Below are positions 3,001 to 18,467 of a stretch of DNA of 64,000 nt, piece after piece. Every line of letters begins with the position of its first letter. Position 1 is the stretch's first letter. Both the position numbers and the translations under genes were made by a program. The notes under the pieces were generated by a model that made no database searches, had not been told where the DNA came from, and saw nothing but the letters and a program-made list of their open reading frames with translations. The stretch is from positions 74,900-138,899 of the forward strand of contig JACPMZ010000003.1 in the NCBI GenBank assembly GCA_016185705.1, read 5' to 3'. This stretch comes from Candidatus Woesearchaeota archaeon. GTDB taxonomy: Archaea; Nanobdellota; Nanobdellia; Woesearchaeales; UBA10216.

Positions 3001-6000
3001 AATGAACGGAACATTCCTGAGCTGAGTGAAATTTTCAATGTACTGGTTGTTGGCAAAGTCAGTTGCATTAATGGTGATGTTGTAGTGCGAAGCATTAATC
3101 TGATTGGCGTCAAAGCTGATGTTCCAGTAACCATTTGCACGGTCGCCAACATACAGGTCCGGCTTGAGCCATTCTGTCGCCGAGTGAGGCGTCATTATTC
3201 TCACTGAAACGTTCACAAGATTGGTCTGCGTGTCATTTGCGGAGATGTTAATCAGGAAAAAGTCTGTGTGGTGGACAGAGTCGTTAACGAGGTTTATTAT
3301 GGAAATGTTTGGAATGGTGTTGTCAAAAACAACCGATACATTGCCGGTTACAGTCGGGAAGAGGTTGCTGTTGGATGCATTGACCGTGATGTTGTAGCTG
3401 CCTTCCGGAAATGCAGTGGTGTCAATCGTGGCGTTCCAGTAACCAGAAGTTGTGGTTCCTGAGCTTAAGCTCAACGGGATAAGCCCTGTCTGGTTGCCTG
3501 AGGAATTAAGAAGGGTTGCATTCACCGCGCTGACAGTAACAGTTCCGGTTTCATTCACCGATACGTTAATCAGGAGGTTTCCGGATATGTTTGCCCTGTT
3601 GACAGGAACTGTTATGGATACATTTGCAGGGTCATTGTCAATTGTAATTGTGGAAGCGTTTGTTACATTCTGGTTGCCTGCAACGTCAGTGGCGTTAATC
3701 GTAATGTTGTACTCGTCATCGCCAGTGTTTGTTGTTATGAGCGTTGCGTTCCATGAGCCCACGAACAGAGTGCCATCAGACAGGTTGGCATCAAGCCAGT
3801 CAAGCACTGTGTCGCCGTCTGCGGTCTGAAGCCTGTAAGTTACATTCAGGACTCCGCTCGTGGTTTCATTCACAGAGCCGTTTATCTGTATGGTGCCGCG
3901 CTGCACTGTTCCCGAAGCCGGTGTTATTACAGATATGTTGGGAGGCGTGTTGTCAATGGTAACTGTTGTTGCGTTGGTTACATTCTGGTTCTTTACGAAG
4001 TCAGTGGCGTTGATTGTGATGTTGTACTCGCCGTCTGCAATAGCCGTGCTGTCAAACGTCATGTTCCAGTGGCCGTTATCGGCGTTGCCATCGTAGAGCT
4101 TCACGTCCAGCCAAGCAGAGGTTGTGCCGCCTGCTGAATGCAGCCGGAACGTAACATTCATCACTCCTGTGCCAGAATCATTCACTGAGGAGTTAATCAG
4201 GAAACTGCCTAACTGTGTTGAGCCGCTGACAGGAACCATTATTGACACGTTAGGCACGTTATTGTCAATGGTTATGGACACATTCTCAGATATGTTTGTG
4301 TTTCTGCTCTTCTCATCAGTCCACGGAATGCTTCCTGAGTCAGTGGCATTAGAGCTCAAATTGTATACGCCGTCAGCAATGCCCAAGGCAACAGTGTCAA
4401 TGGTTACGTTCCGGTAGCCGGATTTGAGCGAGCCAACGCTTAAATTAGTGGCGATGGGCGAAACTGAATGCACAGAGCCGGGCCGAAGCAAGCTGATATT
4501 AACGTCAGGCACATCGCTTTCAGTGTCATTTACAGAAACGTTTATCGTAAAGGAGCCGGAAATGTTTTCCATTGCAGCAGGCAGCTGGATGCTGTTGTTC
4601 GGGGGAGTGGTGTCGAGCTCAATCTGCAGGTGGGTGTGGTTTACGATAACAAAGTCGTAGGGATTTGTTCCCTCTGACCAGCCGACTGCGATGTCTGTGT
4701 TGTTGGACACCTCCGGGGCAGTAAGCCCCTGCTTGACAGTTGAGGTGTTGACAAGCGTAAACTCCCCAGACCATGAGGTGTTGTCCCAAATCCTGTAAAG
4801 AACGGATTCATTGCCCTCAGGCGTGACATTAATGTAATACAGGAACAGGTGAGTGTCGTTCCTGCTGAGAACAGGGCCTGTCAGCTTTGGCAGGTTAGAG
4901 TCAGGTGCGGTAAACTGCTGAACCAGCGTCCAATCTGTCCTGTCGCCGCCGTCGCTTCTGAAATGACTGAGGGAGGTGTCGTTTGCAAAAACCACGTGGA
5001 TGTCAATATCGCCGCTGTTGTTGAACGAAATACCGCTCCATTGAGACGCGGAGCCTGTACCTCTGCCAAAAGTGGTGGATGCGGTCTGGGCTACGGCAAC
5101 CCCGCCATTCCAGGTGACATTCGATGCTTGGGCACCATCGCCTGCTGACACTGAAATCCTCATCATGTTGCCATTCTGAAGCGGGAAGAACTTGGACGAA
5201 GGGAAATTGGAGCCGGTGCTAGGCAGAGTCACATTCCAGTCGCCATCCCAGCTGTCGCCGTTGTCCGGATTAAGACTGTAATTATTCGGGAAAGTACTTG
5301 AGTGGCAGTTATTGCCTTCCTGGCCCGCAAAATAATAGTTCTCAGTGCTGATTCCAACTGTGGCGCCTGTGCCAGCGCACGCATCAGCCTGCTGTTTCAG
5401 CGAATAATTTATGGTAAAGTTGACGCTGCCGTCTGGAAAGGTGTTGCCGCGGGTGAAATTCATATATTTCTTAGTGCCATCATCACGAAGGCCAATAAAC
5501 AGGAAAGTGTCAAAGCCGTTTATTTCCTTGTAAACAACGTCGCCCCTGCTGGTGGTCCCGCCAGGCTGCTGCTCAGGGCTGCCCTTATTCCACACCACAA
5601 GGTCTGAACTGAAGTTGTGCTTGTATACATTGCTGTCAATATACCACGCAAACCAGTTGTTCCCGTCCCAGAAAATCTTTCTTTCGTAAGGAAAGTTGGA
5701 GATGATTGCTGAGTCAGTGAAAACAGTCGGGTCTATTGTTATGTTGCCTGCGTCCTTAATGCCATTAATCCGCACGACACTGCCGTCGCCTGATAAAGCA
5801 AAGCTGGATGCGATGTCAGAAAAGTCATACGTCAGGCTGCCGAGGTTTATCTGCATGGCATCGTGGTCAATGTTGAGCAGCCCGATGTTTGAGCTGCTGA
5901 AGTCCATGCCCAGGTATTCCATGCTATTCTTCAGGTTCTGGCAGTCCTGCGTGGCGTTCGCCAAAGTTAATCCAAAGTCCTGCTTCCAGCTGTTCAGGTC

Positions 6001-8712
6001 AATGTCTGACTTATCCCAGCTGAGTGCGTAGCAGCCGGCAGTATCCTCGGGAACGTAATGCCTGTTTCCGTTTGCGGACATGAAAACCCTGTAGCTCAGC
6101 TCGTTCCGGCTGCCGGAGTCTGTCCAGTTAAGGACAAAATGGGAGCTGTTCCAGGCAAACTGCGTCTGGAAGTCGCTGATGCTCTTGCGTGCCACGCGCA
6201 CAACTGTATCAGGCGAAAGCACGTCGTAAAATGCTTCAGCAACCGCTCCTGAGTAGTTGAAGTGCTGCACGTGCCTGCCATTGGTTTTTACAGTTGCCGT
6301 ATGGAACATTGTCTGGTTGCATTCCAGATTCCTTACTGAGTATCCGACGATATGGCTGCCGTCAGTCAACACTTCAGGGGCAATTACTGTTTCGCCGCAG
6401 CTGAACTGCACGAATTCAAGGTCCGGCTGCCGCTGCACGCCGTCCTTAAAGCCGGAGTAGCTCGTGCCGTTTGCAGCGGTTATTGTCAGGTTGCCGATGC
6501 CGGTTGCGTTAAATTCAACAGTCCAGTTCCTCTCAATGAAATCCTTTGTGTAAACATTAAAGATGAATATCTCAACCTCGTACAGAATGCTGCTTAAGCT
6601 TGGAACTATCCACTCAACCCTGTCAATCAGCCCGTTACTGTTGGTGTCAATTTTCTTAATGCCAGTGATTTCCACTTTTGTTCCGTTGACCAACGCGAAA
6701 AGCTTAACGAAATTCTCAGGGGTTTCCCTTATGTCAGTGTAGGCAGTGATGTTTTCGTAATGGGTTTCTGAAGAGATGTTAATCTGCTTCCTCGTTGAAT
6801 CTGTTTCATTTTCCATGGCTATTGGCGCAGGCGTCTGGTATTCCACTTCCAGCTCGGTGGCGTTTTCCTCAATAACCAGCGTTATGTTTTCGTCCACAGT
6901 GTCCTTCAGCAGTTTTTCCCTGGATGCTGCGACTGTTTTCAGGTGGCTGTCAAGCGTCTCAACTTTTTTGCCGATGCGCTCCTCCCTCTCAACCTTTACG
7001 CTGCCTGCAATGCTTTCGTTGTTTTCCCTGACTGTGATGTTAATTGCTTCCTTGGGAATCTCTGTTGTTGTGCTGGACTCATTCACCAGCGTGATTATTT
7101 TCTTCCACGACACTGGCTCGTTGATAACTGCCCGGCCCTGCACCAGTGTTTCGTCCTTGTCAGTAATGTTGCTGCGCGTTATGTTGAATGTGTTGGAGAC
7201 AGCAGAGTAGTCCAGGTCGGATGCTGTGATGAAGGCAAAGGCAGTTCCTTTGAATCCATTTTCAGCCAGTATGGACGCTGTGCCATCTGCAATATCTATC
7301 TTAACATCTCCTATGACTGTCGCATTGTAAGTAAGCTCATCACTGTCAGGGTCTTTGAAATGCTCGGGCAGCAGGATTCTTGCGCCAGTTGTCATGTTGC
7401 CAATGTCTGCGAAGAAATATGGCGGCCTGTTATCAAGATAGACTGTCAGTTCAGCAGTGTTCCCGGTTGTGGAGTTTAAGTCAGACGCTGTAAAAGTTAT
7501 TAAAGCTGTTCCTGCAAAGTTTTTTGCATGCGTTATCGCTGCAATGCTTCCGTTGATTGAAACATCTGCTATGTCAGCCAGCGTATATGTTGCTGCAAAC
7601 ATCAGCTCATCCCCTTCAGCGTCGTAGAAGTACCTGCTCAGGTTCAGCGTAAGCGTAGCATTCTGCTTTATGCTTTGGGCAGGTATTGGAAGCGCTTTCG
7701 GAGCGGCATTTTCCGAGAATGCAGCTTTGTAAGTCAGCGAATCTATGACAAGGACTGCATCCTGGACTGAAACAATCAGCTTTGCAGACCTGCTCGTTCC
7801 GCTTAATGCGCAGGTTTCAACACATTTGTTGCTGAATCTTGTTACCGGCAGGAACACTGCCTGCAGCGAGCTCCACCCGCTCGAGACAACATCCACAGCA
7901 GGTTCAGTAATTTCAAGGGTGTAATTCGCATAGATGACCTGCGCGCTCACAGTGTTGTTAAAGCCAGTTCCATAAGCTCCGTAAGGAATGTTGAGGGTCT
8001 GCCAATTGTTGGAAACAGGAGCAAGCTCTGCCAGGCTGCAGCATGCGGCATTGCCATTGCAGATAACAGTGGAAGTGTCTTTGTTTGCAGGGGCAATCTG
8101 CCAGCGCGTGCACAGATTTTCTTCAGGAACAGGCCAGCTGAATGCGGTGTTGTGCACTGTGTAGTCAATCGAGCCCTCACTTGTGTCAATGCCGTCATCA
8201 TCAGGGTCAAAGGCTGTTCCTGAATTGTACTCAAGCACGACTTCAATTGACTTATCAGCACTTTCAACCTGCCTGCCTGCTGCGGCATCTGACTCATCGG
8301 TTGCATTGGGAACAAAGTCAAATATCGGAACAGTGGTGTGCAGCTCCCTTATGTCCCTGACAAGCTGGCCTGATATTGACAGGAAGTTGCCGTTGCCATT
8401 GCCGGAAGCGGATTGGTTAAGGACAACATAACGCTTCCCCTCAATTTCAAGCAAAACAGCTACAGGGCCTGTTCCAACAATCACGCCGCTTACCGAAACT
8501 GAAGATGGAGGGGCATCCAGAGCCAGAGGAATTTCAGCATATGTGGCATTTGCAGACGATATGTGCAGGTCAAGCGTCTGTGTAATGGTTTTCTCAGCCA
8601 CCAAAAAGCCGGTAAGAGAAAGCTGGTCTGCGATTGCCAGCAGTGTAAGCATCAGAACTACAGCGAACACTGCTGCTCCGAATCCCTGCGCGGCTCTTTC
8701 AGAGCGGGTCAT
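1..8712 (-). CDS. giant secreted/surface adhesin-like protein (>2,900 aa; C-terminus beyond window start) with N-terminal hydrophobic signal/anchor, many Ig-like repeat domains and dense N-x-S/T sequons
   Basis: ATG at 8712-8710 preceded by GGAGGT; one continuous minus-strand frame to position 1 (all listed small minus ORFs in 1-8700 lie in a different frame and plus ORFs are antisense shadows); N-terminus MTRSERAAQGFGAAVFAVVLMLTLLAIA; ~105-aa tandem repeats (TIDNxxPNxS...YNITINATD...NQNVTNA) encoded by ~318-bp DNA periodicity around 3370-4650. Confidence 0.8.
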   Translation of the reverse strand, partial: MTRSERAAQGFGAAVFAVVLMLTLLAIADQLSLTGFLVAEKTITQTLDLHISSANATYAEIPLALDAPPSSVSVSGVIVGTGPVAVLLEIEGKRYVVLNQSASGNGNGNFLSISGQLVRDIRELHTTVPIFDFVPNATDESDAAAGRQVESADKSIEVVLEYNSGTAFDPDDDGIDTSEGSIDYTVHNTAFSWPVPEENLCTRWQIAPANKDTSTVICNGNAACCSLAELAPVSNNWQTLNIPYGAYGTGFNNTVSAQVIYANYTLEITEPAVDVVSSGWSSLQAVFLPVTRFSNKCVETCALSGTSRSAKLIVSVQDAVLVIDSLTYKAAFSENAAPKALPIPAQSIKQNATLTLNLSRYFYDAEGDELMFAATYTLADIADVSINGSIAAITHAKNFAGTALITFTASDLNSTTGNTAELTVYLDNRPPYFFADIGNMTTGARILLPEHFKDPDSDELTYNATVIGDVKIDIADGTASILAENGFKGTAFAFITASDLDYSAVSNTFNITRSNITDKDETLVQGRAVINEPVSWKKIITLVNESSTTTEIPKEAINITVRENNESIAGSVKVEREERIGKKVETLDSHLKTVAASREKLLKDTVDENITLVIEENATELEVEYQTPAPIAMENETDSTRKQINISSETHYENITAYTDIRETPENFVKLFALVNGTKVEITGIKKIDTNSNGLIDRVEWIVPSLSSILYEVEIFIFNVYTKDFIERNWTVEFNATGIGNLTITAANGTSYSGFKDGVQRQPDLEFVQFSCGETVIAPEVLTDGSHIVGYSVRNLECNQTMFHTATVKTNGRHVQHFNYSGAVAEAFYDVLSPDTVVRVARKSISDFQTQFAWNSSHFVLNWTDSGSRNELSYRVFMSANGNRHYVPEDTAGCYALSWDKSDIDLNSWKQDFGLTLANATQDCQNLKNSMEYLGMDFSSSNIGLLNIDHDAMQINLGSLTYDFSDIASSFALSGDGSVVRINGIKDAGNITIDPTVFTDSAIISNFPYERKIFWDGNNWFAWYIDSNVYKHNFSSDLVVWNKGSPEQQPGGTTSRGDVVYKEINGFDTFLFIGLRDDGTKKYMNFTRGNTFPDGSVNFTINYSLKQQADACAGTGATVGISTENYYFAGQEGNNCHSSTFPNNYSLNPDNGDSWDGDWNVTLPSTGSNFPSSKFFPLQNGNMMRISVSAGDGAQASNVTWNGGVAVAQTASTTFGRGTGSASQWSGISFNNSGDIDIHVVFANDTSLSHFRSDGGDRTDWTLVQQFTAPDSNLPKLTGPVLSRNDTHLFLYYINVTPEGNESVLYRIWDNTSWSGEFTLVNTSTVKQGLTAPEVSNNTDIAVGWSEGTNPYDFVIVNHTHLQIELDTTPPNNSIQLPAAMENISGSFTINVSVNDTESDVPDVNISLLRPGSVHSVSPIATNLSVGSLKSGYRNVTIDTVALGIADGVYNLSSNATDSGSIPWTDEKSRNTNISENVSITIDNNVPNVSIMVPVSGSTQLGSFLINSSVNDSGTGVMNVTFRLHSAGGTTSAWLDVKLYDGNADNGHWNMTFDSTAIADGEYNITINATDFVKNQNVTNATTVTIDNTPPNISVITPASGTVQRGTIQINGSVNETTSGVLNVTYRLQTADGDTVLDWLDANLSDGTLFVGSWNATLITTNTGDDEYNITINATDVAGNQNVTNASTITIDNDPANVSITVPVNRANISGNLLINVSVNETGTVTVSAVNATLLNSSGNQTGLIPLSLSSGTTTSGYWNATIDTTAFPEGSYNITVNASNSNLFPTVTGNVSVVFDNTIPNISIINLVNDSVHHTDFFLINISANDTQTNLVNVSVRIMTPHSATEWLKPDLYVGDRANGYWNISFDANQINASHYNITINATDFANNQYIENFTQLRNVPFIDYIANTAANDSALNQSFILINVTIVETNISNITFALYNASTNVTNITSTNDTALRLMNFTDLNPHELYYYNVTVISNNTAENTTETRTIRLDNRVPSFVNLTEPLDMNVSPQTVNFTWIAIDELSPPLTCSLVINDTTNISDVSTANNTLTNYTLRMNQGTYNWSINCSDRAENVNTSATFTFSIDVNAPDVTVTSPLNDTYTNTVLNISFTASDATGIANCSVFHNATGAYLRNATNESVTRNSNTEFSISGVNDGVQLVWAVECADAVVPDANVGITVNYTATFDTTAPASFTLTTPVNDTITTNTSPTFVWAAATESNFANYTLQIANISTFAAINATYYALAASSNTSLVPGVALANDIYWYWRVTAYDLASNSFTSQPFVYITDNSAPLIELVVNPATAELAEENISINWTARDIHLNESYVNISYADNGTFIRQLTENSTFNTSGLLVANYSIRLYAIDNASNTNTTVQNATTQDTTPPGVFTLLTPADNAVENNFTPTFTWEAAAEAKLANYTIEVTNSSSFAWVNFSNNATTEHYDSTDVLISDITWYWRVKAFDTAGNQRTSTDAFRYLHDNASPTIGGETRIPAAVLASSDVTVNASVSDARVSVVVVEGNWTGSLANTTVTNNSGGLYSYVIGSSELEGNEVVQWKYYANDTGGNTAEGTLQTFTVSNTVPGNTTLLLPANGSVQLHSSVIIAWTASSDDDGDTITYDLLIDDNADLATPHVNITGISGTTRTVTENLTSGQMFYAVRSNDAQNVSNFSGIHVMEVVIAAINITIDNLTQVFPGDVVRVNVSELNGTGWINEVNITIRSTNYTAADVGSNTWEYNYTVENITAQNLDITAYAFNDTTNSTAASRVTVQVLDASPALPVITLLCSNHTYALNNTNITVEVVSNPDTLLSAINVSIMMPNTSVDLPLHIQNGSTGLTYYHNYTYYIAETGNFTIEANITDIANQSAQKSSTFHAVNGTKHITLNDTTGINVTFLDVCTGFA

Positions 8713-8963
8713 GCCCTACCTCCAAAAACATTGTCCTCAAACACCCAGACAGCACCTTTCGTGCTAATCACGATTTTTTTGCTGAGCTGCAGGTAGTCAA
8801 GAACCTGAAGCAAAGTGCCGTGCATCACCTTTTTCGGAAGCTGCCTTTTGATGTCAGCAACGCTCAGCGGCTGCGCAGAAGACTTGAGAACGCCCTCAAC
8901 CATGAGAATGGTGTTCAAAGTAGGAGAATGCATGCTCCGGGATGTACGCCCCTTTTTCCTCAT
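8709..8963 (-). CDS. small (84 aa) basic winged-helix-like DNA-binding protein, translationally coupled (ATGA overlap) to the giant surface-protein gene
   Basis: ORF MRKKGRTSRS...; stop TGA 8711-8709 overlaps ATG 8712-8710 of downstream gene; helix-rich basic sequence. Confidence 0.5.
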   Translation of the reverse strand: MRKKGRTSRSMHSPTLNTILMVEGVLKSSAQPLSVADIKRQLPKKVMHGTLLQVLDYLQLSKKIVISTKGAVWVFEDNVFGGRA

Positions 8964-9209
8964 GACTTAACCTTCAACACTTAACACTTCAGTATATTTA
9001 TATATCAATTATGTATGAAAATGATTTTATTTAAAATTGAAATATTACGATTTAATATTAATTTAAATAAATCCGATATTTTTTTAATATTTATAATCAT
9101 TAACTTAATCTAATATTATATTTTTTTAAAGTAATTAGATATTCTTATACCTCTTTTTCTTATTAATTTAATTTTTTTTTGTATTGATTTAATACTAACT
9201 GATATACAT
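8964..9209 (-). promoter_or_regulatory. extremely AT-rich upstream region (putative promoter/regulatory region of the wHTH + giant surface protein operon)
   Basis: ~250 bp of >85% A+T with many TATA-like and TTTAAA/ATTTAAAT motifs directly upstream of 8963. Confidence 0.4.
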
Positions 9210-9425: not shown

Positions 9426-9514
9426 TTCAGAATCAATGAGAATGTCTTCGGATGCAAGAGCATGTTCTGGCTCAAATTCGTGGTTTTCAGGTTTTTTGAC
9501 TCCTTAGTGGCTTT

Positions 9515-9569
9515 ATGACGCTTTTTAGAAAATCCGTCATAACTACTTTCAAATGATGAAACATTTATA
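9515..9569. repeat. left copy of perfect 55-bp direct repeat flanking the RM/EVE cassette; contains palindrome TTATGACG-N16-CGTCATAA and a decoy start ATGATGAAACATTTATAA (MMKHL*)
   Basis: identical 55 nt at 9515-9569 and 13121-13175 (atgacgctttttagaaaatccgtcataactactttcaaatgatgaaacatttata). Confidence 0.9.
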
Positions 9570-9644
9570 ATCCGTCCTATCTATTACCACGTCGTGAATA
9601 CGGATAATTTCTCATTTTTAAGGATTTGACCATTTTACGACGCT

Positions 9645-9671
9645 ATGACGCTTTCCTCAAATCCGTCATAA
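9645..9671. repeat. degenerate third copy of the repeat core (atgacgctttcctcaaatccgtcataa)
   Basis: shares atgacgcttt..aaatccgtcataa with the 55-bp repeats. Confidence 0.6.
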
Positions 9672-9779
9672 GCAGATGAGTTTTTCTGAAAACCCAGATG
9701 AAAGTAAGCGGAAACTTCAGAAATCGACGGAAATTTGAATTTCTTTGCTCTGATCTTGAATATAAAGTTAGAAAGTCTC

Positions 9780-11282
9780 TCAAAGAAATGCATTCAACAC
9801 TACTTGCTGTCTGGATAAATAATACTGCTCAACAAGATGATCAGGTAGAGGTAGCCTTTCTAAATTTCTAGGTTCAACCTTTACAGCTCCAGAACCATAA
9901 CTCTTACCAACCAATTTTAGATTCTCAATGGTTTCTGGGTGATTCAAAATCTCCCATAATGCATTAATGTACTTCTCATCATTTCTCTTAGGGTATACGC
10001 ATAAAAACCCAGTCAGGGGAACAACCCCCGCTTCATTTTTGATAAATCTTGAATTTCTACGACCTAAATACGCAAATAGCAATGCAGGAGTCTCTCTTCT
10101 CTCCATATAGTACCATTTCTTTCTTTGCTTAATCAATGCTCTGTTAGGTAAATCTAACTTAACTCCTTTTTTTATATAGTTAGCTAATGTTTCAGGAAGG
10201 TTCTCACACTGTTGATTTATTGATAATAAATATGTTGGTCGCCCTTTATCTTCAAGTTCTCGTATATCTTCTTTGCTCAGCAGATTACCTGTTGCATCTC
10301 TCGTTCTACCGATTGCTAATTTTAAAAAATTTTTTGGTATTTGCAGTTCCTCCACTTGTTCTTTTGTAAGAAAAAAAAATTCGTTTGCTCCTGTAGCAAT
10401 CCCTCTCATCACATTAGCAAAATCGCTTAGATGATACTTGAATCCATTATTTAGTTGTTGAGGTCGTGATAGTCCAGTCTCTAAAGCCTCTTTTAATGTT
10501 CTTGTTGTTATTTCAAGATTGTTTAATGACCTATCCTGGAAATCAGACTCTGCAAAATTGTAAAGGTCATCTGTATCAGCTTTATTTACTCTTACCCATT
10601 TAATTTCTTTTTTTTGCATCTCTTTTTTTATGAAAAATATAACTGCATTTGTATCTATTGACGGAAAGGGTGTTGCTTTTTCATCAAAGGTAATTACACA
10701 CTCTAAAGAAAAATTTCTGGTTATCCAATTCCATAATCGTTTAGCAAAAGTTCCCTCGCATGTATCTGCCGGCATAATAAATGCTAATCTTCCTTTATTC
10801 TCCAATAAGCTTAAAGCCTGAATAAGAAAATAGATATGATAACCGGCACGCCCATCGATTATTACTCCTGTCTTCTTTTTAGATAATTGTTTTAAAAATA
10901 GTTTTGTTTCTTTATCTATTCTGTGATGTCTAATATAAGGGGGATTAGCAACAACTGCCTTAAATCTTTCATTTGGTGGATTCTTTAAGAAATCTCTCTG
11001 TTCGACATGGCAATTTACTTCCTTGTAGATATCTTCTTTAAGAACTTCTATATCAATGTCTATTCCGTAGAAATTAGTATTTTTACTTCTATCAATTTCA
11101 TTCAATGCTTTCAGGAATGCACCGCTTCCGGTCCCGGGGTCGAATATCTTGCTTGAATTTTTCTTTACGTAAGAAACCATAGCTTTAGCTACCCAATTTG
11201 GTGTCCAGAATTGACCCTTATTCCTCAATTTTTCTCTTTCTTCGTGTTTTGTCGGTATCTTCTGACTTGCCATTTGAATCAT
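9780..11282 (-). CDS. type II N6-adenine DNA methyltransferase, gamma class (TaqI/Eco57I-like) with C-terminal target-recognition domain
   Basis: motifs FWTPNWVA (motif X), DPGTGSGAFL (motif I, SAM), NPPY (motif IV) in gamma order; 500 aa. Confidence 0.85.
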   Translation of the reverse strand: MIQMASQKIPTKHEEREKLRNKGQFWTPNWVAKAMVSYVKKNSSKIFDPGTGSGAFLKALNEIDRSKNTNFYGIDIDIEVLKEDIYKEVNCHVEQRDFLKNPPNERFKAVVANPPYIRHHRIDKETKLFLKQLSKKKTGVIIDGRAGYHIYFLIQALSLLENKGRLAFIMPADTCEGTFAKRLWNWITRNFSLECVITFDEKATPFPSIDTNAVIFFIKKEMQKKEIKWVRVNKADTDDLYNFAESDFQDRSLNNLEITTRTLKEALETGLSRPQQLNNGFKYHLSDFANVMRGIATGANEFFFLTKEQVEELQIPKNFLKLAIGRTRDATGNLLSKEDIRELEDKGRPTYLLSINQQCENLPETLANYIKKGVKLDLPNRALIKQRKKWYYMERRETPALLFAYLGRRNSRFIKNEAGVVPLTGFLCVYPKRNDEKYINALWEILNHPETIENLKLVGKSYGSGAVKVEPRNLERLPLPDHLVEQYYLSRQQVVLNAFL

Positions 11283-12214
11283 GCTTTTTCCAAAACATCC
11301 AATGCTTCCTGAGTAATGTCCATTAAGCCTCCATTAAAAGTAACATAAGGCAATATGTGGCCATTTTTATCTTCAATATACTGAGGCACTAACTCCGGTT
11401 TACTTTTTGAGATGCCCAGTTGATAAGCATAAAGATAATATATTTTGTATATGGCTTTACTTGTAGTTGCTCCACCTGGAGCTTGGAAAACTTGGATAGT
11501 TTGCTGAATTAATCCTTCGTCGAACAATCTTTCAGCTTCATCCAGAGCTATACCGTATGCTCTGTCAAAGAATACATGCCAGATATGTATGGGGATCTTA
11601 TTCTGGCTCTGCCATTTTTTTAATGGGGCTCTATCTTCCTCTTTTATAATTACTGTTGGAACAACTGCAGTTTTCTTCAGACCCATTTTTCCTTCCAATC
11701 GCTTCCGGGGAGTAAGTTCACTTCCATAGTCTGGCATTTTCTCAGCCACCCAAAGAGAATTTTCACATTCAACAGCAATTATTGCTTTTTGGATAAGTTC
11801 TTTCATCTCATCTTCTTTAATGAACGGAAGTTCGCTTGCCCCACCAACTTTACCAAGAAATTTGTCAACAAAAGCTTTATCTCCTATTTTGAAAACAAGT
11901 ATATCTGGTCTCTTAATATCTCCTAAACCTGCTTTTTCAAGTCTCTCGAAATATAATTCAAAGGCTCTAACATCATCAGTTGGCGCTGTTCCACTTGGCC
12001 CATAAGGGATTGCATAGAATTTTCTAGTTTTATTAACTGCTTCTATTACTCGTTTCTCACTCCACACTCCTTGCGACCAACGCATCAAAAAATCACTACC
12101 TCTTAATCTTCTCGGATTAAGCAAGAAATTTGACCAACCCACCTCCTTTAAACCTCTAAGTTCTAGTTCAATATCCTCGAGCATTACACTCAGTATCTTC
12201 TCAAACGGATGCAT
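11279..12214 (-). CDS. putative cognate type II restriction endonuclease (311 aa); identity not provable from sequence
   Basis: 4-bp overlap (ATGA) with downstream methyltransferase gene, same strand; possible PD...(D/E)xK-like segment RPDILVFKIGDK / AIIAVECE; no match to housekeeping families. Confidence 0.45.
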   Translation of the reverse strand: MHPFEKILSVMLEDIELELRGLKEVGWSNFLLNPRRLRGSDFLMRWSQGVWSEKRVIEAVNKTRKFYAIPYGPSGTAPTDDVRAFELYFERLEKAGLGDIKRPDILVFKIGDKAFVDKFLGKVGGASELPFIKEDEMKELIQKAIIAVECENSLWVAEKMPDYGSELTPRKRLEGKMGLKKTAVVPTVIIKEEDRAPLKKWQSQNKIPIHIWHVFFDRAYGIALDEAERLFDEGLIQQTIQVFQAPGGATTSKAIYKIYYLYAYQLGISKSKPELVPQYIEDKNGHILPYVTFNGGLMDITQEALDVLEKA

Positions 12215-12224
12215 TTTTTATCAT

Positions 12225-12626
12225 CTACTTTTCCAAATATATATAATCAGAGGGGGTAATGTTAATTATAGACCTCCCCATTAATACTGTTCCCCATCTC
12301 AAAGTATTCTTGAATATAGATAAATTAGCAGGAATATTTTTCCCGCTTGACCAATTGTTTATTTCAATGGGGTTTTTTAAGATTAATTTAGGTTCGATAT
12401 CAATATAATATTTAAATTGCTTATTCCTAAATCTTACTTTTTTCTGAGAAGGTATTGACTTTATTTCAAACGTGGCACAAATTCTTTTAGGTATAAGATA
12501 GATGACTAAACGATCCCCTTTTTTGATTAAATTGTATTGATTTTCAGATTTTACTGCATAAATATTATTGGATTGAATTTTTTCCCAATTCTCCTCATCA
12601 GTTAGAGCTAACCAATACTTAGTCAT
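12225..12626 (-). CDS. EVE domain (PUA-like, PH1033 family) protein, predicted modified-base-binding reader
   Basis: MTKYWLALTDEENWEKI...GDRLVIY...FEI...LRWG...DYIYLEK closely parallels the Pyrococcus PH1033 EVE-domain pattern (YWIxxTxENWExI...GDxLVIY...RW). Confidence 0.8.
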   Translation of the reverse strand: MTKYWLALTDEENWEKIQSNNIYAVKSENQYNLIKKGDRLVIYLIPKRICATFEIKSIPSQKKVRFRNKQFKYYIDIEPKLILKNPIEINNWSSGKNIPANLSIFKNTLRWGTVLMGRSIINITPSDYIYLEK

Positions 12627-12777
12627 TTATTATCACTTTTTTGTTAGATTTATCTAATTCATTTCTCATGAAATTTTCAAATTGCCGTGAAAGTATCCAT
12701 CCTTTTCTTTCGCAGATACTTTTGTAATCATCATAAACCTGCTCATCAACACTTAATGATATTACTTTTTTTGCCAT
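12619..12777 (-). CDS. ribbon-helix-helix (CopG/Arc-like) DNA-binding protein; candidate controller of the cassette (likely start MAKKV at 12777; longer ORF to 12810 exists)
   Basis: KKVISLSVDEQVYDDYKSICERKGWILSRQFENFMRNEL is a typical RHH beta-strand + two helices; overlaps EVE gene start by 8 bp. Confidence 0.65.
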   Translation of the reverse strand: MAKKVISLSVDEQVYDDYKSICERKGWILSRQFENFMRNELDKSNKKVIIND

Positions 12778-12779
12778 TT

Positions 12780-12944
12780 TTATCCCTTTGAAAACCTTAA
12801 ACCAAGCCACGTGAATAAACAGCCTATAAGAAAAATTACAACTTTAGTTCCGAAAGGATCTTTTCCAAAAAATGAATACAAAACAGCTCCAAATCCAATG
12901 ATTACAGCCGCTGCGGTTCCACTTATAAGTTTTGTATCTCCCAC
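12780..12944 (-). CDS. possible tiny hydrophobic membrane peptide (~54 aa, GTG start) immediately upstream of the RHH gene
   Basis: VGDTKLISGTAAAVIIGFGAVLYSFFGKDPFGTKVVIFLIGCLFTWLGLRFSKG; AAGGTGA upstream; stop TAA 4 nt before RHH ATG. Confidence 0.25.
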   Translation of the reverse strand: MGDTKLISGTAAAVIIGFGAVLYSFFGKDPFGTKVVIFLIGCLFTWLGLRFSKG

Positions 12945-13120
12945 CCAATCACCTTATTTATGTTTATATAAGCGTAAATATCCAGGTATATAAAGTTTTC
13001 TCTGACCTGTCCAGTGACCAGTGGAAAAAATAAAATAAGCGAGTCGTTACTTCGCTCCATTTTGCCTGCAACACCCTAAGTTTACGCCTGAGGATGCTTT
13101 CCTGTTCTGAAGGTGGCAAA

Positions 13121-13175
13121 ATGACGCTTTTTAGAAAATCCGTCATAACTACTTTCAAATGATGAAACATTTATA
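13121..13175. repeat. right copy of perfect 55-bp direct repeat; here it supplies the 5' end of the downstream methyltransferase ORF
   Basis: identical to 9515-9569. Confidence 0.9.
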
Positions 13176-14112
13176 TATTCATATAAAATATCAGAGTGAG
13201 CATGCAAACATTTCCTGTCAGCAATGCTTCGGAAAACGTGCAGCAGAGGGTATAACTCCAATGGCTTTGCCTGACATATTGACGCGCACACTGAGACAAA
13301 TAGCGCCGCGTAAAGCCAAGAAGCATTATATAGATCCCTGGCGTTTTTTAATTCCTCTTGTTAAAGGACAGGTATCTACGGATTATCAGCGTTTCTGGCA
13401 GAAGTACTATGCAGATTTACCCAGCCCTTCAGACAAGGATACCATTAAGCCTGGAGAGGAACCGCAATCAGCGGCATACCATTATACTGCAGTAAAGCTG
13501 TCCATACTTCAGAGTTTGAATTTAAACCCAGACCTTTATCCTAAGCGTCCCAGCGTGCTTGACATAGGCACCGGGACCGGGCATTGGATTGATTTCTATC
13601 TTGGCGAAGTGTTTAATGCTTCCCGCGTTACCGGCGTGGAAATTGCACCGTCTGCAGCAGAGTTTCTCAGAGAAAAATACAGTTCAAGAAGTGACGTTAC
13701 TATAATGGAAGCTGACATTTCAAAACCGGGTTTTTCCCTGGAAGACAAGGTCGGCATAGTTAACGCAATCGGTGTCATGTTCCATATAGTGCCTGATGAG
13801 GGATGGAAAAGAGCAATTGCGAATATTGCAAATGCTTTGGATTATAACGGGGTTATTTTGGTTGGAGGTCAGTTCAGAAGAATTCCTCCTCCTTTGGGCG
13901 GGCTTGTCCAATTTGAAAAAATACCTCCTGGGATGAATGATGAAGTTAAATACGTTGCTACCAAGAGACTTCGCTCCCTTGGCTATTGGAAAAAAATTTT
14001 AGGCGAGCATGGCCTTGAGGTTGTAGACATGATAAAAACCAAGGCACACCCCCTTATCTCAACCCCTGAGAACAACATACTGGTAGCCAGGCACAGCCGC
14101 AGCAAATTTTAA
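13159..14112 (+). CDS. class I SAM-dependent methyltransferase (probable true start at ATG 13261, MALPDIL...)
   Basis: VLDIGTGTGHW motif I; first 34 codons of the long ORF are AT-rich repeat-derived sequence. Confidence 0.75.
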   Translation: MMKHLYIHIKYQSEHANISCQQCFGKRAAEGITPMALPDILTRTLRQIAPRKAKKHYIDPWRFLIPLVKGQVSTDYQRFWQKYYADLPSPSDKDTIKPGEEPQSAAYHYTAVKLSILQSLNLNPDLYPKRPSVLDIGTGTGHWIDFYLGEVFNASRVTGVEIAPSAAEFLREKYSSRSDVTIMEADISKPGFSLEDKVGIVNAIGVMFHIVPDEGWKRAIANIANALDYNGVILVGGQFRRIPPPLGGLVQFEKIPPGMNDEVKYVATKRLRSLGYWKKILGEHGLEVVDMIKTKAHPLISTPENNILVARHSRSKF

Positions 14113-14237: not shown

Positions 14238-17200
14238 TTGAGAAAAGAGGCCATATTAATGGAAGCCAGGGAAATCGCTATTATTTCGGCAGCATTTTTT
14301 CTGCTTATAGTGCTTGTATTTGCAGCCACGCCCGAGGCAGAGATGATTGTGTTTGATGACGTCCTGCAGAACGGGTTCAAGACAAACGAGTGGGAAGCGC
14401 CTGACGGGGCAACGTGCATCCTGAGCACAGCTTATACAGCAGAGAAGGCATCCGGAACTGCTTCAATACAGACAAACCTCAACAACTACTGCACAGTTTT
14501 CCTTTACAGGGATATAACCTTTGACATAGCTGATTACACGCAGGTGGAGTTTGACATATACGGCAGCAGCCCGTCGCTTACAGAATTTAACGTCAAATTG
14601 GCGACCAACTCCTACCAAACGACTGGAAGCATTGTGCCGATATCCGATTACGTCACAGTCTCAAACAAGTGGCAGCACGTAACAATACCCCTGAAAGACT
14701 TCAGCGTGGAATCCGGAACAAAAATTGCCGGAATACAATACAGGGATGCAGGAATCACAGGGCGGGGAAACGTGCTGCTTGATAACGTGAGGTTCGTCAA
14801 GATGAAGGACACCACAGGGCCTGTTCTGCAATCAGCTTCCATAACAACACAGGACTCAGTGAGGATAGACTTTGACGAGGGGCTTGATGCCACAGCCGCG
14901 AATCCAGGCAATTACCTAATCTCATCACTGACTGACTCTGCATTCGTCTTGCCCCTGGCGCCGGCGTCAGCAGAGCTGCTGAACCAAAAAGGCGTATCGC
15001 TCAAACTAAGCAAAGAGCTCAAGAACGGACACACATACATCATAGTTGTCAACAATGTAAAAGACCTGGCTGGCAACGCCATTACAGCAGGCTCATCCAT
15101 CAGCCTGCCTGTAACAATATCAGGCGTTGCGCTGAATGTGGACGCATCCAGAACCATAAGGCCCTTCAACAGCAAGATGAGGGGCGTCCAGCTGGCATGC
15201 TGGATGCACGAGCAGGGAAACAAGCCAAGCCCTGAAAATGCAGCGAACCTTGCCGAACTGACCAAACCGCTGAAGCCGGGCATAATAAGATACTGCGGCG
15301 GCTTGTGGGCTAACAACGTCGGCTGGGACAGAACCGGGCAGGCCCCCAAGGACGGGATGTGGAACTGGGTGAATCCGGACACAGCAGCAAAGCTTCCATA
15401 CAGCTACACCCACGCATACAAAGCAGCGTGGATTGACAGCCTGGGAAGGTTCCTTAAGGAAGTAGGAGCAGAGGCAATGATACAGGCAAACCTCTGCGAC
15501 AACAATCCACAAATGTGGGCAGACATGGTGAAGTATGCGAATGTTGAGAAGGGCTATGGCTTCAAATACTGGGAGCTAAGCAACGAAATTGACCTTGAAG
15601 ATGCCATAAGGGAAAAATGCTTCGGAACAACAGACAAGACTGCCTCAGCCAGGAACTATTCCAAGAGGTTTGCAGCATATACCAAAGCAATGAAGGCAGT
15701 TGACCCAAACATAAAAACAATGGGCCCTGTTACTGCAAACTACTACAGCGCACCTACTTGGTTCCCGCCGCTGGCAAATGAAATGAAAAGCCAGGGACTG
15801 AACCTTGACGTGATGTCATGGCACTGGTACCAAATATTTGATTTTTCAACAGACCCAAGCACAGAAGTGTACGATTATGGTTCACTGGCAGCGCTTCTGA
15901 ACTACAACACAGCGCTGACAAGCCAAAACAGCCCTTACAACAAAGGAGATGTCATACAGCCGCCCAGCCACGGAACAGCAGAGCACTGGGTGTACAGGTC
16001 AAGACGGGCATTCGCAGAGCACACAGCCAAAGATGCACGCTTATATGCAGCTGACTTTCCCAACGCAGAATTAGCGGTAACAGAAGCAAACTCCCACGGC
16101 TCTGATTTCACCACCTCGCTGAACGGCAACCATCTCGGGGCTGTGCGAATGGCAGACTACCTCGGAAGAGCTGCATACAACGGGCTGGACATAAACATCT
16201 GGTATGAGCTGTACGACGGCGGGGCAACCGGAATTTCTTACGGGCTGATTTATCCGGACAATGATGCCAACCCGACAAAGCTCTTCATCAGGCCAACATA
16301 TTACCCTATGCTGATGTACGCCCAGTGGTTCGGCGACACAATGGTGCAGTCTTCAACTGCTGACCCGGCACAAAATGTAGTGGTGTGGGCAAGCACCGAC
16401 ACCTTAGATTCAGGCAAACTAAAACTAATGCTCATAAACTTCAACTCAACAGTTGTAACCGCAACCGTAAACATAGCAGGGTTTACGCCCAAGAGCGGCA
16501 AATACTACCAGATGGCAAGCGCAAACCCAGCCAACCTGGACCGCTCCATGGCCAACAGCGGCGGAGAAACAACCATCAACGGATACAAACTGGATACAAC
16601 AGCAAGCAAAATCCAGCAGTCAATTGACGCCATAGCCCCAATCGCGCCATCAATAAGCGGAAACACGATAACGCAAACCCTTCAGCCGTATTCTGTAACT
16701 GCAATAGTGCTGAGTTCCACAGAATCCGTATCGCCGCAACCCCAGCAGCCAGCGCCACAGCTGCCGGATACCGCTGCGCCAATAATTTCAGCCTACTCAC
16801 CGGCAAAAGGAGAGTCCAATGTCAACAACAACAAGGCAATCAGCATGCTCATCCAGGACACAGGCGCCGGAGTGGATAAAAATTCAATAGAGCTGTTTGT
16901 CAAGGGCGTGAAGAAAACACCAGCAATAACAGGAACCAGCGCAGCATACACAGTAACATACACGCCAGAAATGCCATACCTGAACGCCGAGATAATCAAT
17001 GTACTGGTTAAAGCAAGCGACCTCTCAGGCAATCCGGCAATTGACAGCTACTACTTCACCATAGGAGGGGCTGCAATATGCTCGGACGGCATCTGCTCCT
17101 ACAGCGAAAGGGAAAGCTGCCCGCAGGACTGCGCATACGTAAAAGGAAACTTCAGCGACAGCAGCCACAACTTTGAAAACTTCAAGATGCGGATAAACAG

Positions 17201-18467
17201 CAGCGAAGACATCTACAAATACTTTGACCGCGAATTGCCCGTAGAATTCCTTGAAGAAATAAGCGGCTCAACAATTCCAAGAATAAAGTTTGACTTCAAA
17301 TTTGACATGGGCAAATTCCTTAATTTCAATGAGCTTCATTACTTCAAGCAGAAAGCAGCGGACAGAAGAGGATACCTTTACATGTCAGGGCTCAACGTTT
17401 CAGGCGAACTGAAGAGCTTCCTCATAGACCGGGTTAATGGAAGCAGCAATGCTGTCTGCATAAAGGATGCGGAAATCACAAACATAAGCGAAGTGAGCGA
17501 AGCATGCAGCCAGGCATCAGAGCAGCTTCTGATATGCGACGGGAAGCAGCGAAACGGCTACAAATGCGTGACGCAAGGCAACTACTTCAACGTGTCCGGA
17601 TTAACGCACTCAGCTGTGGTGGAATACGTGGCAGCATGCGGAAACAGCAGATGCGATGAGAGCGAATCATGCTCAAGCTGCAGCGCGGACTGCGGGGCAT
17701 GCGCTGCTGCAAGCACACCAAGCAGCTCATCCGGCGGAGGCGGAGGCGGGGGAGGCGGCGGTGGCGGTGGCGGCGGAGGCAGCAGCCAAAAGCTTTCAGA
17801 AAAAGTAACGCTGGACGGCACTCTTGAAGCAGGAAGCAGCGGAAGCTTTGCATTCAGCAAGCACATAGATGCCCTTTCAGTATACCAAGTCGATGTTGTA
17901 ACAAACTTCCAGGCAACAACACCGTCATTAACGCTGCAGGAAGTTTCGCTGTCAAAAGAAGTGCCAAGCGCCACTGACGCAGGCGAGAAGCTGTATTCAA
18001 TTGTCCAGCTTTCCCGCATCGGGCTAAGCGATGACGTTAAATCAGACATCAGGTTTAAGATAAAAAGCGAGTGGTTTATAAAAGAAGAGGTGGACGCCTC
18101 AACCATAGTGCTGAAAAAGCTGTCAGGAGACAAATGGATAAAGCTGCCAACCATTCATGCAGCCGAAGAACCGGGATACCATGCTTACAGCGCAAGCCTC
18201 ACAGGACTGTCAATATTTGCAGTGGTCGGAGGGCAGACAAAGCCAGCGCCGCAGCAGCAAACCATACAGCAGGAAAAAAGAGCTGACAAGTACGCCAATG
18301 AAATCAATGAGATTAAAGCTGAACCAATAGTCAGCAAGAAAAGGTCGTTCTTTGCGCTGAAGCAGGTATTCTCAATAATCGTGATTATGGCAGCCCTGCT
18401 CTTAGTATACGAGGTTGTGCATAAGATAAGGAAACGCAACCGGTCAGCAGAGTCCTACATTAACTGA
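14238..18467 (+). CDS. large surface protein (1409 aa): signal peptide, glycoside-hydrolase-like TIM-barrel region (YWELSNE), Ig-like domains, PQ-rich linker, Cys-rich module, (Gly)16 linker, C-terminal TM anchor with basic tail
   Basis: N-term MEAREIAIISAAFFLLIVLVFAA; WELSNEID resembles GH clan-A acid/base NE(P) motif; ICSDGICSYSERESCPQDCAY; C-term FFALKQVFSIIVIMAALLLVYEVVHKIRKRNR. Confidence 0.8.
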   Translation: MRKEAILMEAREIAIISAAFFLLIVLVFAATPEAEMIVFDDVLQNGFKTNEWEAPDGATCILSTAYTAEKASGTASIQTNLNNYCTVFLYRDITFDIADYTQVEFDIYGSSPSLTEFNVKLATNSYQTTGSIVPISDYVTVSNKWQHVTIPLKDFSVESGTKIAGIQYRDAGITGRGNVLLDNVRFVKMKDTTGPVLQSASITTQDSVRIDFDEGLDATAANPGNYLISSLTDSAFVLPLAPASAELLNQKGVSLKLSKELKNGHTYIIVVNNVKDLAGNAITAGSSISLPVTISGVALNVDASRTIRPFNSKMRGVQLACWMHEQGNKPSPENAANLAELTKPLKPGIIRYCGGLWANNVGWDRTGQAPKDGMWNWVNPDTAAKLPYSYTHAYKAAWIDSLGRFLKEVGAEAMIQANLCDNNPQMWADMVKYANVEKGYGFKYWELSNEIDLEDAIREKCFGTTDKTASARNYSKRFAAYTKAMKAVDPNIKTMGPVTANYYSAPTWFPPLANEMKSQGLNLDVMSWHWYQIFDFSTDPSTEVYDYGSLAALLNYNTALTSQNSPYNKGDVIQPPSHGTAEHWVYRSRRAFAEHTAKDARLYAADFPNAELAVTEANSHGSDFTTSLNGNHLGAVRMADYLGRAAYNGLDINIWYELYDGGATGISYGLIYPDNDANPTKLFIRPTYYPMLMYAQWFGDTMVQSSTADPAQNVVVWASTDTLDSGKLKLMLINFNSTVVTATVNIAGFTPKSGKYYQMASANPANLDRSMANSGGETTINGYKLDTTASKIQQSIDAIAPIAPSISGNTITQTLQPYSVTAIVLSSTESVSPQPQQPAPQLPDTAAPIISAYSPAKGESNVNNNKAISMLIQDTGAGVDKNSIELFVKGVKKTPAITGTSAAYTVTYTPEMPYLNAEIINVLVKASDLSGNPAIDSYYFTIGGAAICSDGICSYSERESCPQDCAYVKGNFSDSSHNFENFKMRINSSEDIYKYFDRELPVEFLEEISGSTIPRIKFDFKFDMGKFLNFNELHYFKQKAADRRGYLYMSGLNVSGELKSFLIDRVNGSSNAVCIKDAEITNISEVSEACSQASEQLLICDGKQRNGYKCVTQGNYFNVSGLTHSAVVEYVAACGNSRCDESESCSSCSADCGACAAASTPSSSSGGGGGGGGGGGGGGGGSSQKLSEKVTLDGTLEAGSSGSFAFSKHIDALSVYQVDVVTNFQATTPSLTLQEVSLSKEVPSATDAGEKLYSIVQLSRIGLSDDVKSDIRFKIKSEWFIKEEVDASTIVLKKLSGDKWIKLPTIHAAEEPGYHAYSASLTGLSIFAVVGGQTKPAPQQQTIQQEKRADKYANEINEIKAEPIVSKKRSFFALKQVFSIIVIMAALLLVYEVVHKIRKRNRSAESYIN
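17733..17780 (+). repeat. (GGN)16 trinucleotide tract encoding 16 consecutive Gly (poly-Pro on antisense)
   Basis: ggcggaggcggaggcgggggaggcggcggtggcggtggcggcggaggc. Confidence 0.9.

Follow-up and report, generated by a model that had tools for sequence, protein, structure and literature searches.

A horizontally acquired AccI-family restriction-modification cassette with an optional EVE gene in a Candidatus Woesearchaeota archaeon

We analysed four open reading frames (ORFs) that are tightly packed on the minus strand between positions 9780 and 12810 of a 64,000-nt stretch of contig JACPMZ010000003.1, which is derived from a Candidatus Woesearchaeota archaeon. This whole stretch is called the window; coordinates given without a locus identifier refer to it throughout, and (-) and (+) denote strands in it. 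In gene order the ORFs encode a putative ribbon-helix-helix (RHH) protein of 52-63 amino acids (aa), an EVE protein of 133 aa, an AccI-family nuclease of 311 aa and a DNA methyltransferase (MTase) of 500 aa. They make up a horizontally acquired cassette of low G+C content and about 3.6 kb, which occupies positions 9507-13175 and has 63-nt direct repeats at its edges. Nuclease and MTase constitute a conventional Type II restriction-modification (R-M) pair, to which the EVE gene is an optional accessory. The best explanation of the whole, to which we assign a probability of about 0.55, is that of a foreign four-gene cassette in which a Type II pair is accompanied by an EVE protein sensing DNA marks other than the one written by the MTase of the cassette.

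A low-G+C cassette between long direct repeats

The four genes form a compositional island, with G+C fractions of 0.28-0.38 compared with 0.44-0.50 for the flanking genes, and are bracketed exactly by the two copies of the 63-nt direct repeat (Table 1). The exact 55-mer contained in this repeat was matched twice, compared with 0 matches expected. The repeats together with the contrast in G+C content support mobility of the cassette. DNA homology with other cassettes is restricted to about 12758-9821. No integrase or transposase gene was found inside the cassette, and exact-match look-ups of the flanking S-adenosylmethionine (SAM)-dependent MTase gene did not recover an empty insertion site. 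We infer a target duplication behind the 63-nt repeats, and insertion of the cassette may have duplicated the promoter region of this neighboring SAM-dependent MTase gene.

R-M gene units of Helicobacter are reportedly inserted with long target duplications. The window shares with them a bare R-M cassette lying between long direct repeats without any integrase or transposase gene of its own. It differs in that the repeat holds a palindrome (ATGACG-N14-CGTCAT), that a third, partial copy of the repeat is located within the cassette at about 9625-9671, 3' of the MTase gene, and that the target duplication is here a presumed one. Copies of the palindrome, with ATGACG and CGTCAT separated by 13-14 nt, are present at 9515-9540, 9645-9669 and 13121-13146 and could represent either a recombination site or a protein-binding site.

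A 3611-bp Logan contig that matches the cassette and had the look of a possible circle was set aside: it ends where the 55-nt repeat yields k-1 (30-nt) edges, and it is uninformative on excision. Scans for sigma-70 promoters and terminators did not exceed the level of shuffled sequence; models of this kind are unsuited to an archaeal host.

The nuclease belongs to the AccI family and has a predicted PD-(D/E)xK core

The initial annotation of this region, made from the sequence without database searches, had placed the 311-aa and 133-aa ORFs correctly and had left the former unassigned. The 311-aa protein matches Pfam PF09545 RE_AccI with 52.8 bits (E=4.1e-14, gathering cutoff 22) and the PADLOC model for Type II restriction endonucleases, REase_II, at E=4.2e-12, and a database protein that is 100% identical to it, encoded on a contig of 238,850 bp, already carries the NCBI name of AccI family restriction endonuclease. 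None of the NCBIfam models matched. The RE_AccI alignment consists of two stretches, the best of which relates residues 39-166 to positions 35-154 of the 366 profile positions, and the C-terminal half of the protein is divergent. The family is extensive and strongly conserved: a homologue search with the nuclease returned 2549 matches (the top 120 at 72-76% identity; Bacteroidota, Ignavibacteria and other phyla), while sequence searches against the PDB found no relative.

Structure prediction followed by a Foldseek comparison, which had been suggested as a check on the nature of the protein, was carried out in two rounds. A first AlphaFold model made from 18 close homologues was unusable (predicted local distance difference test, pLDDT, 50.8). 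For the second model we used distant representatives to fetch diverse homologues, giving an alignment of 144 sequences, and this AlphaFold2 (AF2) model of the 311-aa protein reached a pLDDT of 88.4 and a predicted template modelling score (pTM) of 0.82. Its best Foldseek matches in the PDB are the fusellovirus nuclease D212, the archaeal Holliday-junction resolvases Hjc, and RecU, with probabilities of 0.97-0.99 and target TM-scores of 0.55-0.69 at weak E-values of 0.02-0.1. PD-(D/E)xK nucleases were thus the best matches, and no confident match to a non-nuclease appeared.

The model displays the features by which the PD-(D/E)xK superfamily is recognized, namely an alpha-beta-beta-beta-alpha-beta core, an acidic residue where strand 2 begins and the (D/E)-x-K region in strand 3. 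Helix 40-62 carries the near-invariant E53, P103-D104 are located just before strand 105-109, and E149-x-E151 lies in strand 146-152 with K191 in the next strand; a helical insertion separates strands 2 and 3 of the nuclease core. P103-D104 and E149 show little or no variation, also among relatives at 23-41% identity, in which E53 and K191 are conserved as well. At position 151 most relatives have E, and two (P0209 and P0272) have K. As judged from the model and the alignment, the predicted catalytic motif is E53, P103-D104 and E149-x-E151, a PD…E-x-E variant of PD-(D/E)xK that resembles the kind found in BamHI. The strings RPDILVF and VECE, which had been quoted as falling short of a clean PD-(D/E)xK signature, are in fact this active-site motif. 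The N-terminal core is followed by a C-terminal all-beta domain (about residues 238-300), whose structure matches are at noise level only.

In the 2008 classification of Type II restriction endonucleases the AccI family is listed under "unknown superfamily" (PMC2441816), and a literature search on RE_AccI/PF09545 found no paper. On the basis of the model, the family would gain an assignment to the PD-(D/E)xK fold with named catalytic residues.

Nuclease and methyltransferase form a widely transferred two-gene unit

The 500-aa protein encoded next to the nuclease matches Pfam N6_Mtase (1e-17), Eco57I (2.1e-16) and M_Eco57I_C (3.3e-8) as well as PADLOC MTase_II (2.5e-66). Its motif I (IFDPGTGSG, residue 46) precedes motif IV (NPPY, residue 113), an order from which we assign it to the gamma class of N6-adenine MTases, and it has an Eco57I-type C-terminal target-recognition domain. 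The ATGA overlap of the two genes reported by the initial annotation is present in the sequence at 11279-11282, where it is common to the stop of the nuclease gene and the start of the MTase gene. A different gene caller puts the MTase start at Met4, which leaves a 5-nt gap and no overlap.

One genome per species was scanned with the nuclease, yielding 355 loci, and the following neighborhood counts refer to the best 80 of these 355. An MTase homologue (47-66% identity) is located directly downstream on the same strand in 79 of the 80; in the exception, L064, the contig end cuts off the downstream DNA. The 80 loci span Bacteroidota, Cyanobacteria, the candidate phyla radiation (CPR; Patescibacteria), Chloroflexota, Nitrospirota and archaea. 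The genes upstream of the nuclease are mutually unrelated, and EVE is absent from all 80 loci, as judged by tblastn and by the family hidden Markov model (HMM). Nuclease and MTase genes are therefore separate, adjacent and co-conserved, as in Type II R-M systems, and the pair is a conventional, self-sufficient and very widely transferred two-gene unit. As had been supposed, the 311-aa protein is the nuclease cognate to the MTase whose gene overlaps with its own. Since the pair occurs without EVE in 79 of the 80 sampled loci, it does not need EVE.

Compared with AccI-family Type IIP systems, which combine PF09545 with a gamma-class N6-adenine MTase, the window has an HMM score above the curated threshold, the same NCBI family name and the same arrangement of separate genes on one strand, in which the nuclease gene precedes that of the MTase and is closely coupled with it. 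In contrast to these systems only the N-terminal half aligns well, placing the nuclease in a divergent subfamily whose recognition sequence need not be GTMKAC, and the clade of the window has two additional upstream genes, RHH and EVE. In the 64-kb window the counts for avoidance of palindromes and of GTMKAC were too small to infer a recognition site.

The EVE protein is a YTH-like protein with conserved aromatic cage positions

The identification of the 133-aa ORF as an EVE protein is sound: it matches Pfam EVE (PF01878) with 26.9 bits against a cutoff of 23 (E=5.6e-6), and the same model matches 7 of 11 family members at E<=0.01. With NCBIfam NF002008/PRK00809 (UPF0310) it scores 52.7 bits against a cutoff of 139, suggesting a related protein that is not a member. 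No model matching the EVE protein was found in PADLOC or PHROGs, and a search of a phage collection gave no EVE homologue.

A profile of the EVE family matches the PDB entries 2p5d (MJECL36, E=4.8e-14) and 1wmm (PH1033, E=2e-13). MJECL36 has been described as a YTH-like protein whose aromatic cage consists of W25, F79 and F90 (PMC6112328). According to the HMMER alignment their counterparts in the window EVE are Y23, F66 and F71. Among 14 aligned family members, which were drawn from every genomic context, nearly all have aromatic residues at the cage positions. MJECL36 and PH1033 (the latter also as 2hd9 and 2zbn) are the closest solved relatives and are of about equal length; they share with the window EVE the WL-x-T-x3-NW start, the RW-x3-MG motif and the aromatic cage positions, at an identity of only about 28-30%. 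Unlike the window EVE, neither is encoded in an operon with a Type II nuclease. The MJECL36 gene is part of a defence island on an M. jannaschii plasmid, where it adjoins an ATP-dependent endonuclease gene and a Type I system is located 3.6 kb away. As far as sequence can indicate, it is plausible that the window EVE is a reader of a flipped-out modified base.

EVE recurrently precedes the nuclease gene but is optional

EVE has few relatives: 11 were found in the first search and a few more later. Homologues of 67-78% identity with readable downstream DNA are all located directly upstream of an AccI-like nuclease gene, and the MTase gene comes next wherever the contig continues. This amounts to about seven contexts (L085/L086, L087, L088/L092, L089/L090, L091, L108 and the window), and this recurrence in independent contexts rules out chance adjacency of EVE and nuclease. 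In every close copy except that of the window the two genes overlap by 14 nt. The ratio of nonsynonymous to synonymous substitution rates (dN/dS) is 0.07-0.17 for EVE, with synonymous sites near saturation, and 0.06-0.08 for the nuclease; EVE is under purifying selection.

The genes located 5' of EVE vary. They encode the RHH protein, a PDDEXK_1 nuclease to which a PEP-utilizer domain may be joined, or, following CARF and metallo-beta-lactamase genes, an HNH-like protein. The PDDEXK_1 gene (L088 1679-3295, L089 926-1657) overlaps EVE by 8 nt and its L088 copy is fused to a PEP-utilizer mobile domain; the HNH-like gene, a weak match, is found just upstream of EVE at L085 4089-4646. EVE may have more than one nuclease partner.

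In a neighbor-joining tree of the nucleases, EVE-bearing and EVE-less cassettes fall into one clade. Its EVE-less members are L103 as well as L105 and L107, which have RHH only, and L107 is the sister of L087, which has both RHH and EVE. From this mixture we conclude that EVE is gained or lost as a module. The EVE-bearing clade was found mostly on metagenome contigs of low G+C content. Where a cassette has RHH only, it is the end of this gene that forms the 14-nt overlap with the nuclease start seen elsewhere for EVE, and the C-terminal tails at this overlap are alike (…KKELERVKNVSI and …EKEMIKNASI). The shared overlap and the similar tails suggest an insertion of EVE immediately 5' of the point at which the RHH gene ends.

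The proposal that nuclease and EVE form a pair is therefore supported as far as their association is recurrent, conserved and under selection; given the absence of EVE from 80 of 80 nuclease loci it does not define the system. EVE is an optional accessory of the cassette rather than the defining partner of this nuclease.

A putative RHH gene upstream of EVE

The RHH ORF overlaps the EVE start by 8 nt. No Pfam model matched the 52-aa protein. In L087 and L091 homologues with 47-53% identity are likewise encoded in the position upstream of EVE, and in L105-L107 an RHH homologue is followed immediately by the nuclease gene, to which it is coupled. In related loci (L087 about 300-343, L091 about 250-291, L107 about 4820-4865) a TATA-like box (TTTATAAA/TTTATATA) is found 5' of the RHH gene, followed by three CATATG palindromes about 10 nt apart, the last of which reaches the start codon. 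By its sequence this array looks like autoregulatory operators. It is absent upstream of the RHH gene of the window.

The RHH protein presumably controls transcription of the cassette. Known C proteins, which regulate Type II operons, are helix-turn-helix proteins. The cassettes resemble C protein-regulated operons in having a gene for a small predicted DNA-binding protein upstream of, and coupled to, the nuclease gene, and in the TATA-like box and the three operator-like palindromes that the relatives show 5' of the RHH gene. They differ in that the candidate controller is RHH/Arc-like, by a weak match, and falls outside the helix-turn-helix class, and in that the window itself lacks the CATATG array.

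A 54-aa ORF with GTG start and two hydrophobic, possibly transmembrane segments ends just before the RHH start codon (12780-12944 (-)). We did not count it as a gene of the cassette, to which it probably does not belong, as it is not conserved in other cassettes.

The wider EVE lineage is associated with several types of R-M operon

More distant EVE relatives (34-48% identity) are located directly upstream of beta-class N6_N4 MTase genes in L096 and L098. In L097 a relative lies upstream of a Type III Mod-Res pair, and in L099 and L100, which are IMG/VR viral contigs, just downstream of such a pair. In our tally 11 of 14 metagenomic EVE contexts directly adjoin R-M genes. The aromatic cage and the motif RWGTVLMG are constant across the R-M types. 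What recurs in the lineage is an R-M operon with an amino-MTase rather than the AccI-like nuclease in itself. This single small lineage of EVE changes places between R-M operons of Type II, of Type III and with a beta-MTase.

In 2020 Bell, Wolf and Koonin described standalone EVE genes that accompany archaeal Type I R-M systems and a COG1743-DUF499-SWI2/SNF2-nuclease system (PMC7641849). EVE is predicted there to be a trans-acting specificity factor for modified bases, which reads a mark that the cognate MTase does not make. The operons described here agree with those systems in that a single-domain EVE gene is part of an R-M operon that retains its own MTase, that they are largely archaeal and located on mobile or defence DNA, and that the same role can be predicted for EVE (PMC7641849). 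They differ from those cases in the partner, a two-gene Type II system here and a Type III Mod-Res pair or beta-class MTase in distant members, and in the position of EVE, which is placed between the RHH and nuclease genes, in translational coupling with the nuclease gene as the first of the R-M pair. In the text of PMC7641849 that was searched, associations of EVE with Type II, Type III or beta-MTase systems are not described. Single-domain EVE genes are recurrently embedded in R-M operons in our data as well, with about seven AccI-type contexts in addition to those with beta-MTase and Type III genes. The association is a Type II/Type III variant of the known association of standalone EVE with R-M systems (PMC7641849) and not the new class of restriction architecture that the initial annotation envisaged as possible.

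We also compared the cassette with Type IV enzymes in which an EVE or YTH domain is fused to a nuclease (VcaM4I EVE-HNH, and EVE/YTH-McrB such as the T. gammatolerans McrB). A PUA-like reader is combined with a nuclease in a defence context in both, and a base-flipping aromatic pocket is expected in the window EVE as it is in the fusions. The Type IV enzymes are single polypeptides or McrBC machines, have no cognate MTase and cut only modified DNA. In the window, on the other hand, the reader is separate and optional, being absent from 80 of 80 nuclease loci, and the nuclease is a classical Type II enzyme accompanied by a protective MTase.

The strongest form of the idea, that the 311-aa protein is a new Type IV-like, modification-dependent nuclease requiring EVE for targeting, we consider very improbable: adjacency and the existing EVE-nuclease fusions among Type IV enzymes are all that favors it, while the comparative data contradict it, the protein being a nuclease of a Type II family that is found, free of EVE, with its cognate MTase in 79 of 80 loci, and a modification-dependent nuclease is not expected to carry such a protective MTase partner.

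Features of the cassette and its surroundings

The features of the cassette are listed in Table 1.

Table 1. Positions of the cassette genes, the flanking repeats and the adjoining host gene in the window
Feature	Position	Strand	Basis or remark
Left 63-nt direct repeat (55 nt identical)	9507-9569		Cassette boundary; repeat search (family D1), spacing 3606 nt
Gamma-class N6-adenine DNA MTase, 500 aa	9780-11282	-	Pfam, PADLOC, motifs
AccI-family Type II restriction endonuclease, 311 aa	11279-12214	-	Pfam RE_AccI, NCBI name, AF2 model, conserved residues
EVE/nuclease junction	12226-12236	-	Alignment of the window with L085, L087, L091, L088, L105, L107 and L103
Standalone EVE / YTH-like (UPF0310-type) protein, 133 aa, pI 9.7	12225-12626	-	Pfam EVE, family profile
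RHH (Arc/CopG-like) gene, 52 aa	12619-12777	-	ATG at 12777; ORF extends to GTG at 12810
Right 63-nt direct repeat	13113-13175		Overlaps promoter and 5' end of the neighboring host SAM-dependent MTase gene
SAM-dependent MTase (Methyltransf_25/11/12)	13159-14112	+	Right direct repeat extends over part of its 5' region, with overlap of the likely TATA box

On one side of the cassette an ORF of at least 2905 codons occupies positions 1-8715 (-) and runs off the start of the window. It shows weak matches to the bacterial Ig-like domains Big_13, Big_7 and Big_3_3 around residues 1500-1780 and probably encodes a giant surface protein, with a likely ATG (8714-8712) that overlaps the stop (8711-8709) of an 84-aa winged-helix ORF at 8709-8963. 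An AT-rich intergenic stretch with a G+C fraction of 0.15 and degenerate tandem-like repeats (8964-9209; repeat family D2 at 9057-9150) separates this ORF from a 71-aa ORF. On the other side a 1409-aa protein is encoded at 14238-18467 (+). It has Big_5, CBM30 and weak GH44-like matches, a run of about 16 glycines and a C-terminal hydrophobic anchor, and is probably a surface glycoside hydrolase or adhesin.

Possible roles of EVE in the cassette

In the explanation that we prefer, the MTase would protect the sites of the host by N6-adenine methylation, and the PD-(D/E)xK nuclease would cut unmethylated copies of the site of the MTase. One clade of cassettes has gained the RHH and EVE genes 5' of the nuclease gene, to which EVE is translationally coupled, and the RHH protein would act as operon controller. 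EVE, a small basic protein with an intact aromatic cage, would bind a flipped-out modified DNA base and in this way add a modification-sensing arm to the R-M system. The modification recognized would be foreign to the MTase of the cassette, for example one on phage DNA that escapes ordinary restriction. By concentrating or retaining the co-expressed R-M proteins on modified DNA, EVE could extend defence to modified invaders. For the role of EVE we follow the prediction published for standalone EVE proteins in archaeal Type I operons (PMC7641849).

Several observations weigh against this explanation. EVE is dispensable, being absent from most cassettes and also from close sister cassettes. It is not obvious how a sequence-specific, Type IIP-like nuclease would serve a recruited reader as effector, and any contact of EVE with DNA, a modified base, the nuclease or the MTase is hypothetical. 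MJECL36 showed no detectable binding to RNA containing N6-methyladenine (m6A) (PMC6112328). In the window itself EVE ends early, at a TAG that arose by a G-to-T change (GGAG to GTAG), and has lost 8 residues while the EVE domain stays intact; the same change removes the 14-nt overlap together with the Shine-Dalgarno-like GGAG 5' of the nuclease ATG and leaves a 10-nt gap, and the coupling of EVE and nuclease may be decaying in this copy. The sole hit behind the RHH assignment is a weak one to a PHROG Arc-like repressor (E=0.007), although the whole profile is covered. Finally, a TBP gene follows EVE in L094 (772-1323, 60% identity) and L109 (789-1040, 55% identity), short contigs on which no R-M gene is visible, and in L095 the EVE relative lies near housekeeping genes. 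The TBP-linked branch may have a different, possibly chromosomal, role.

One tentative alternative keeps the idea of a reader and changes the mark. EVE would read the m6A made by the MTase of the cassette itself and report or use the methylation state of the host. Possible tasks are the shielding of sites that replication has left hemimethylated, a delay or licensing of the nuclease when the cassette reaches a new host, and joint action with the RHH protein on expression. We regard this as nearly as plausible as recognition of a foreign modification. The closest fold relatives of EVE are YTH-like, and an archaeal YTH-McrB domain is reported to bind m6A in DNA (PMC8868631, PMC12707154 and PMC7641849). 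Every MTase found beside the EVE family is an amino-MTase, be it of the gamma N6A type with NPPY, the beta N6_N4 type with DPPY or a Type III Mod, and the constancy of the cage and of RWGTVLMG would suit one common ligand better than a diversity of phage modifications. In addition, the insertion of EVE took place precisely between the gene of the putative controller and that of the nuclease. Where MTases differ in specificity, however, they would present the mark in differing sequence contexts, MJECL36 showed no binding to m6A in RNA (PMC6112328), and the TBP-adjacent members have no MTase in view. Most cassettes of the AccI-type R-M family manage without such a checkpoint, and the published prediction is the opposite, with EVE reading a mark not made by the cognate MTase (PMC7641849). 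The further step, a three-part "write-read-cut" form of Type II (and Type III) R-M in which a sensor of the system's own m6A licenses or restrains the nuclease, for instance at replication or on entry of the mobile cassette into a naive host, is a doubtful one.

Alternatively, EVE might be an independent small gene that travels with R-M cassettes and defence islands and has no functional interaction with the nuclease or the MTase, in which case it could be a minimal defence or anti-phage factor of its own or an RNA- or DNA-binding housekeeping protein. Gain or loss of EVE leaves the nuclease-MTase pair unaffected, members of the family lie beside TBP genes and unrelated genes, other nuclease genes are coupled upstream of EVE (PDDEXK_1 in L088-L090, HNH-like in L085), and defence genes cluster for reasons besides direct interaction. 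We nevertheless find such a purely passive association unlikely, because the 14-nt overlap is kept across copies of 67-78% identity despite near-saturated synonymous change, EVE repeatedly holds the first-gene position in unrelated R-M types, and direct neighborhood to R-M genes prevails among the metagenomic contexts (11 of 14).

Implications

With four genes in 3.6 kb and natural sisters that either carry or lack EVE, the cassette is a compact case that is tractable for the function of standalone EVE proteins. For R-M operons that contain such a protein a modification-sensing arm added to classical restriction has been predicted. If EVE should instead read the m6A of its own system, a single prokaryotic operon would hold a writer-reader pairing for m6A in DNA, and R-M systems would be linked to the origin of m6A writer-reader pairs.

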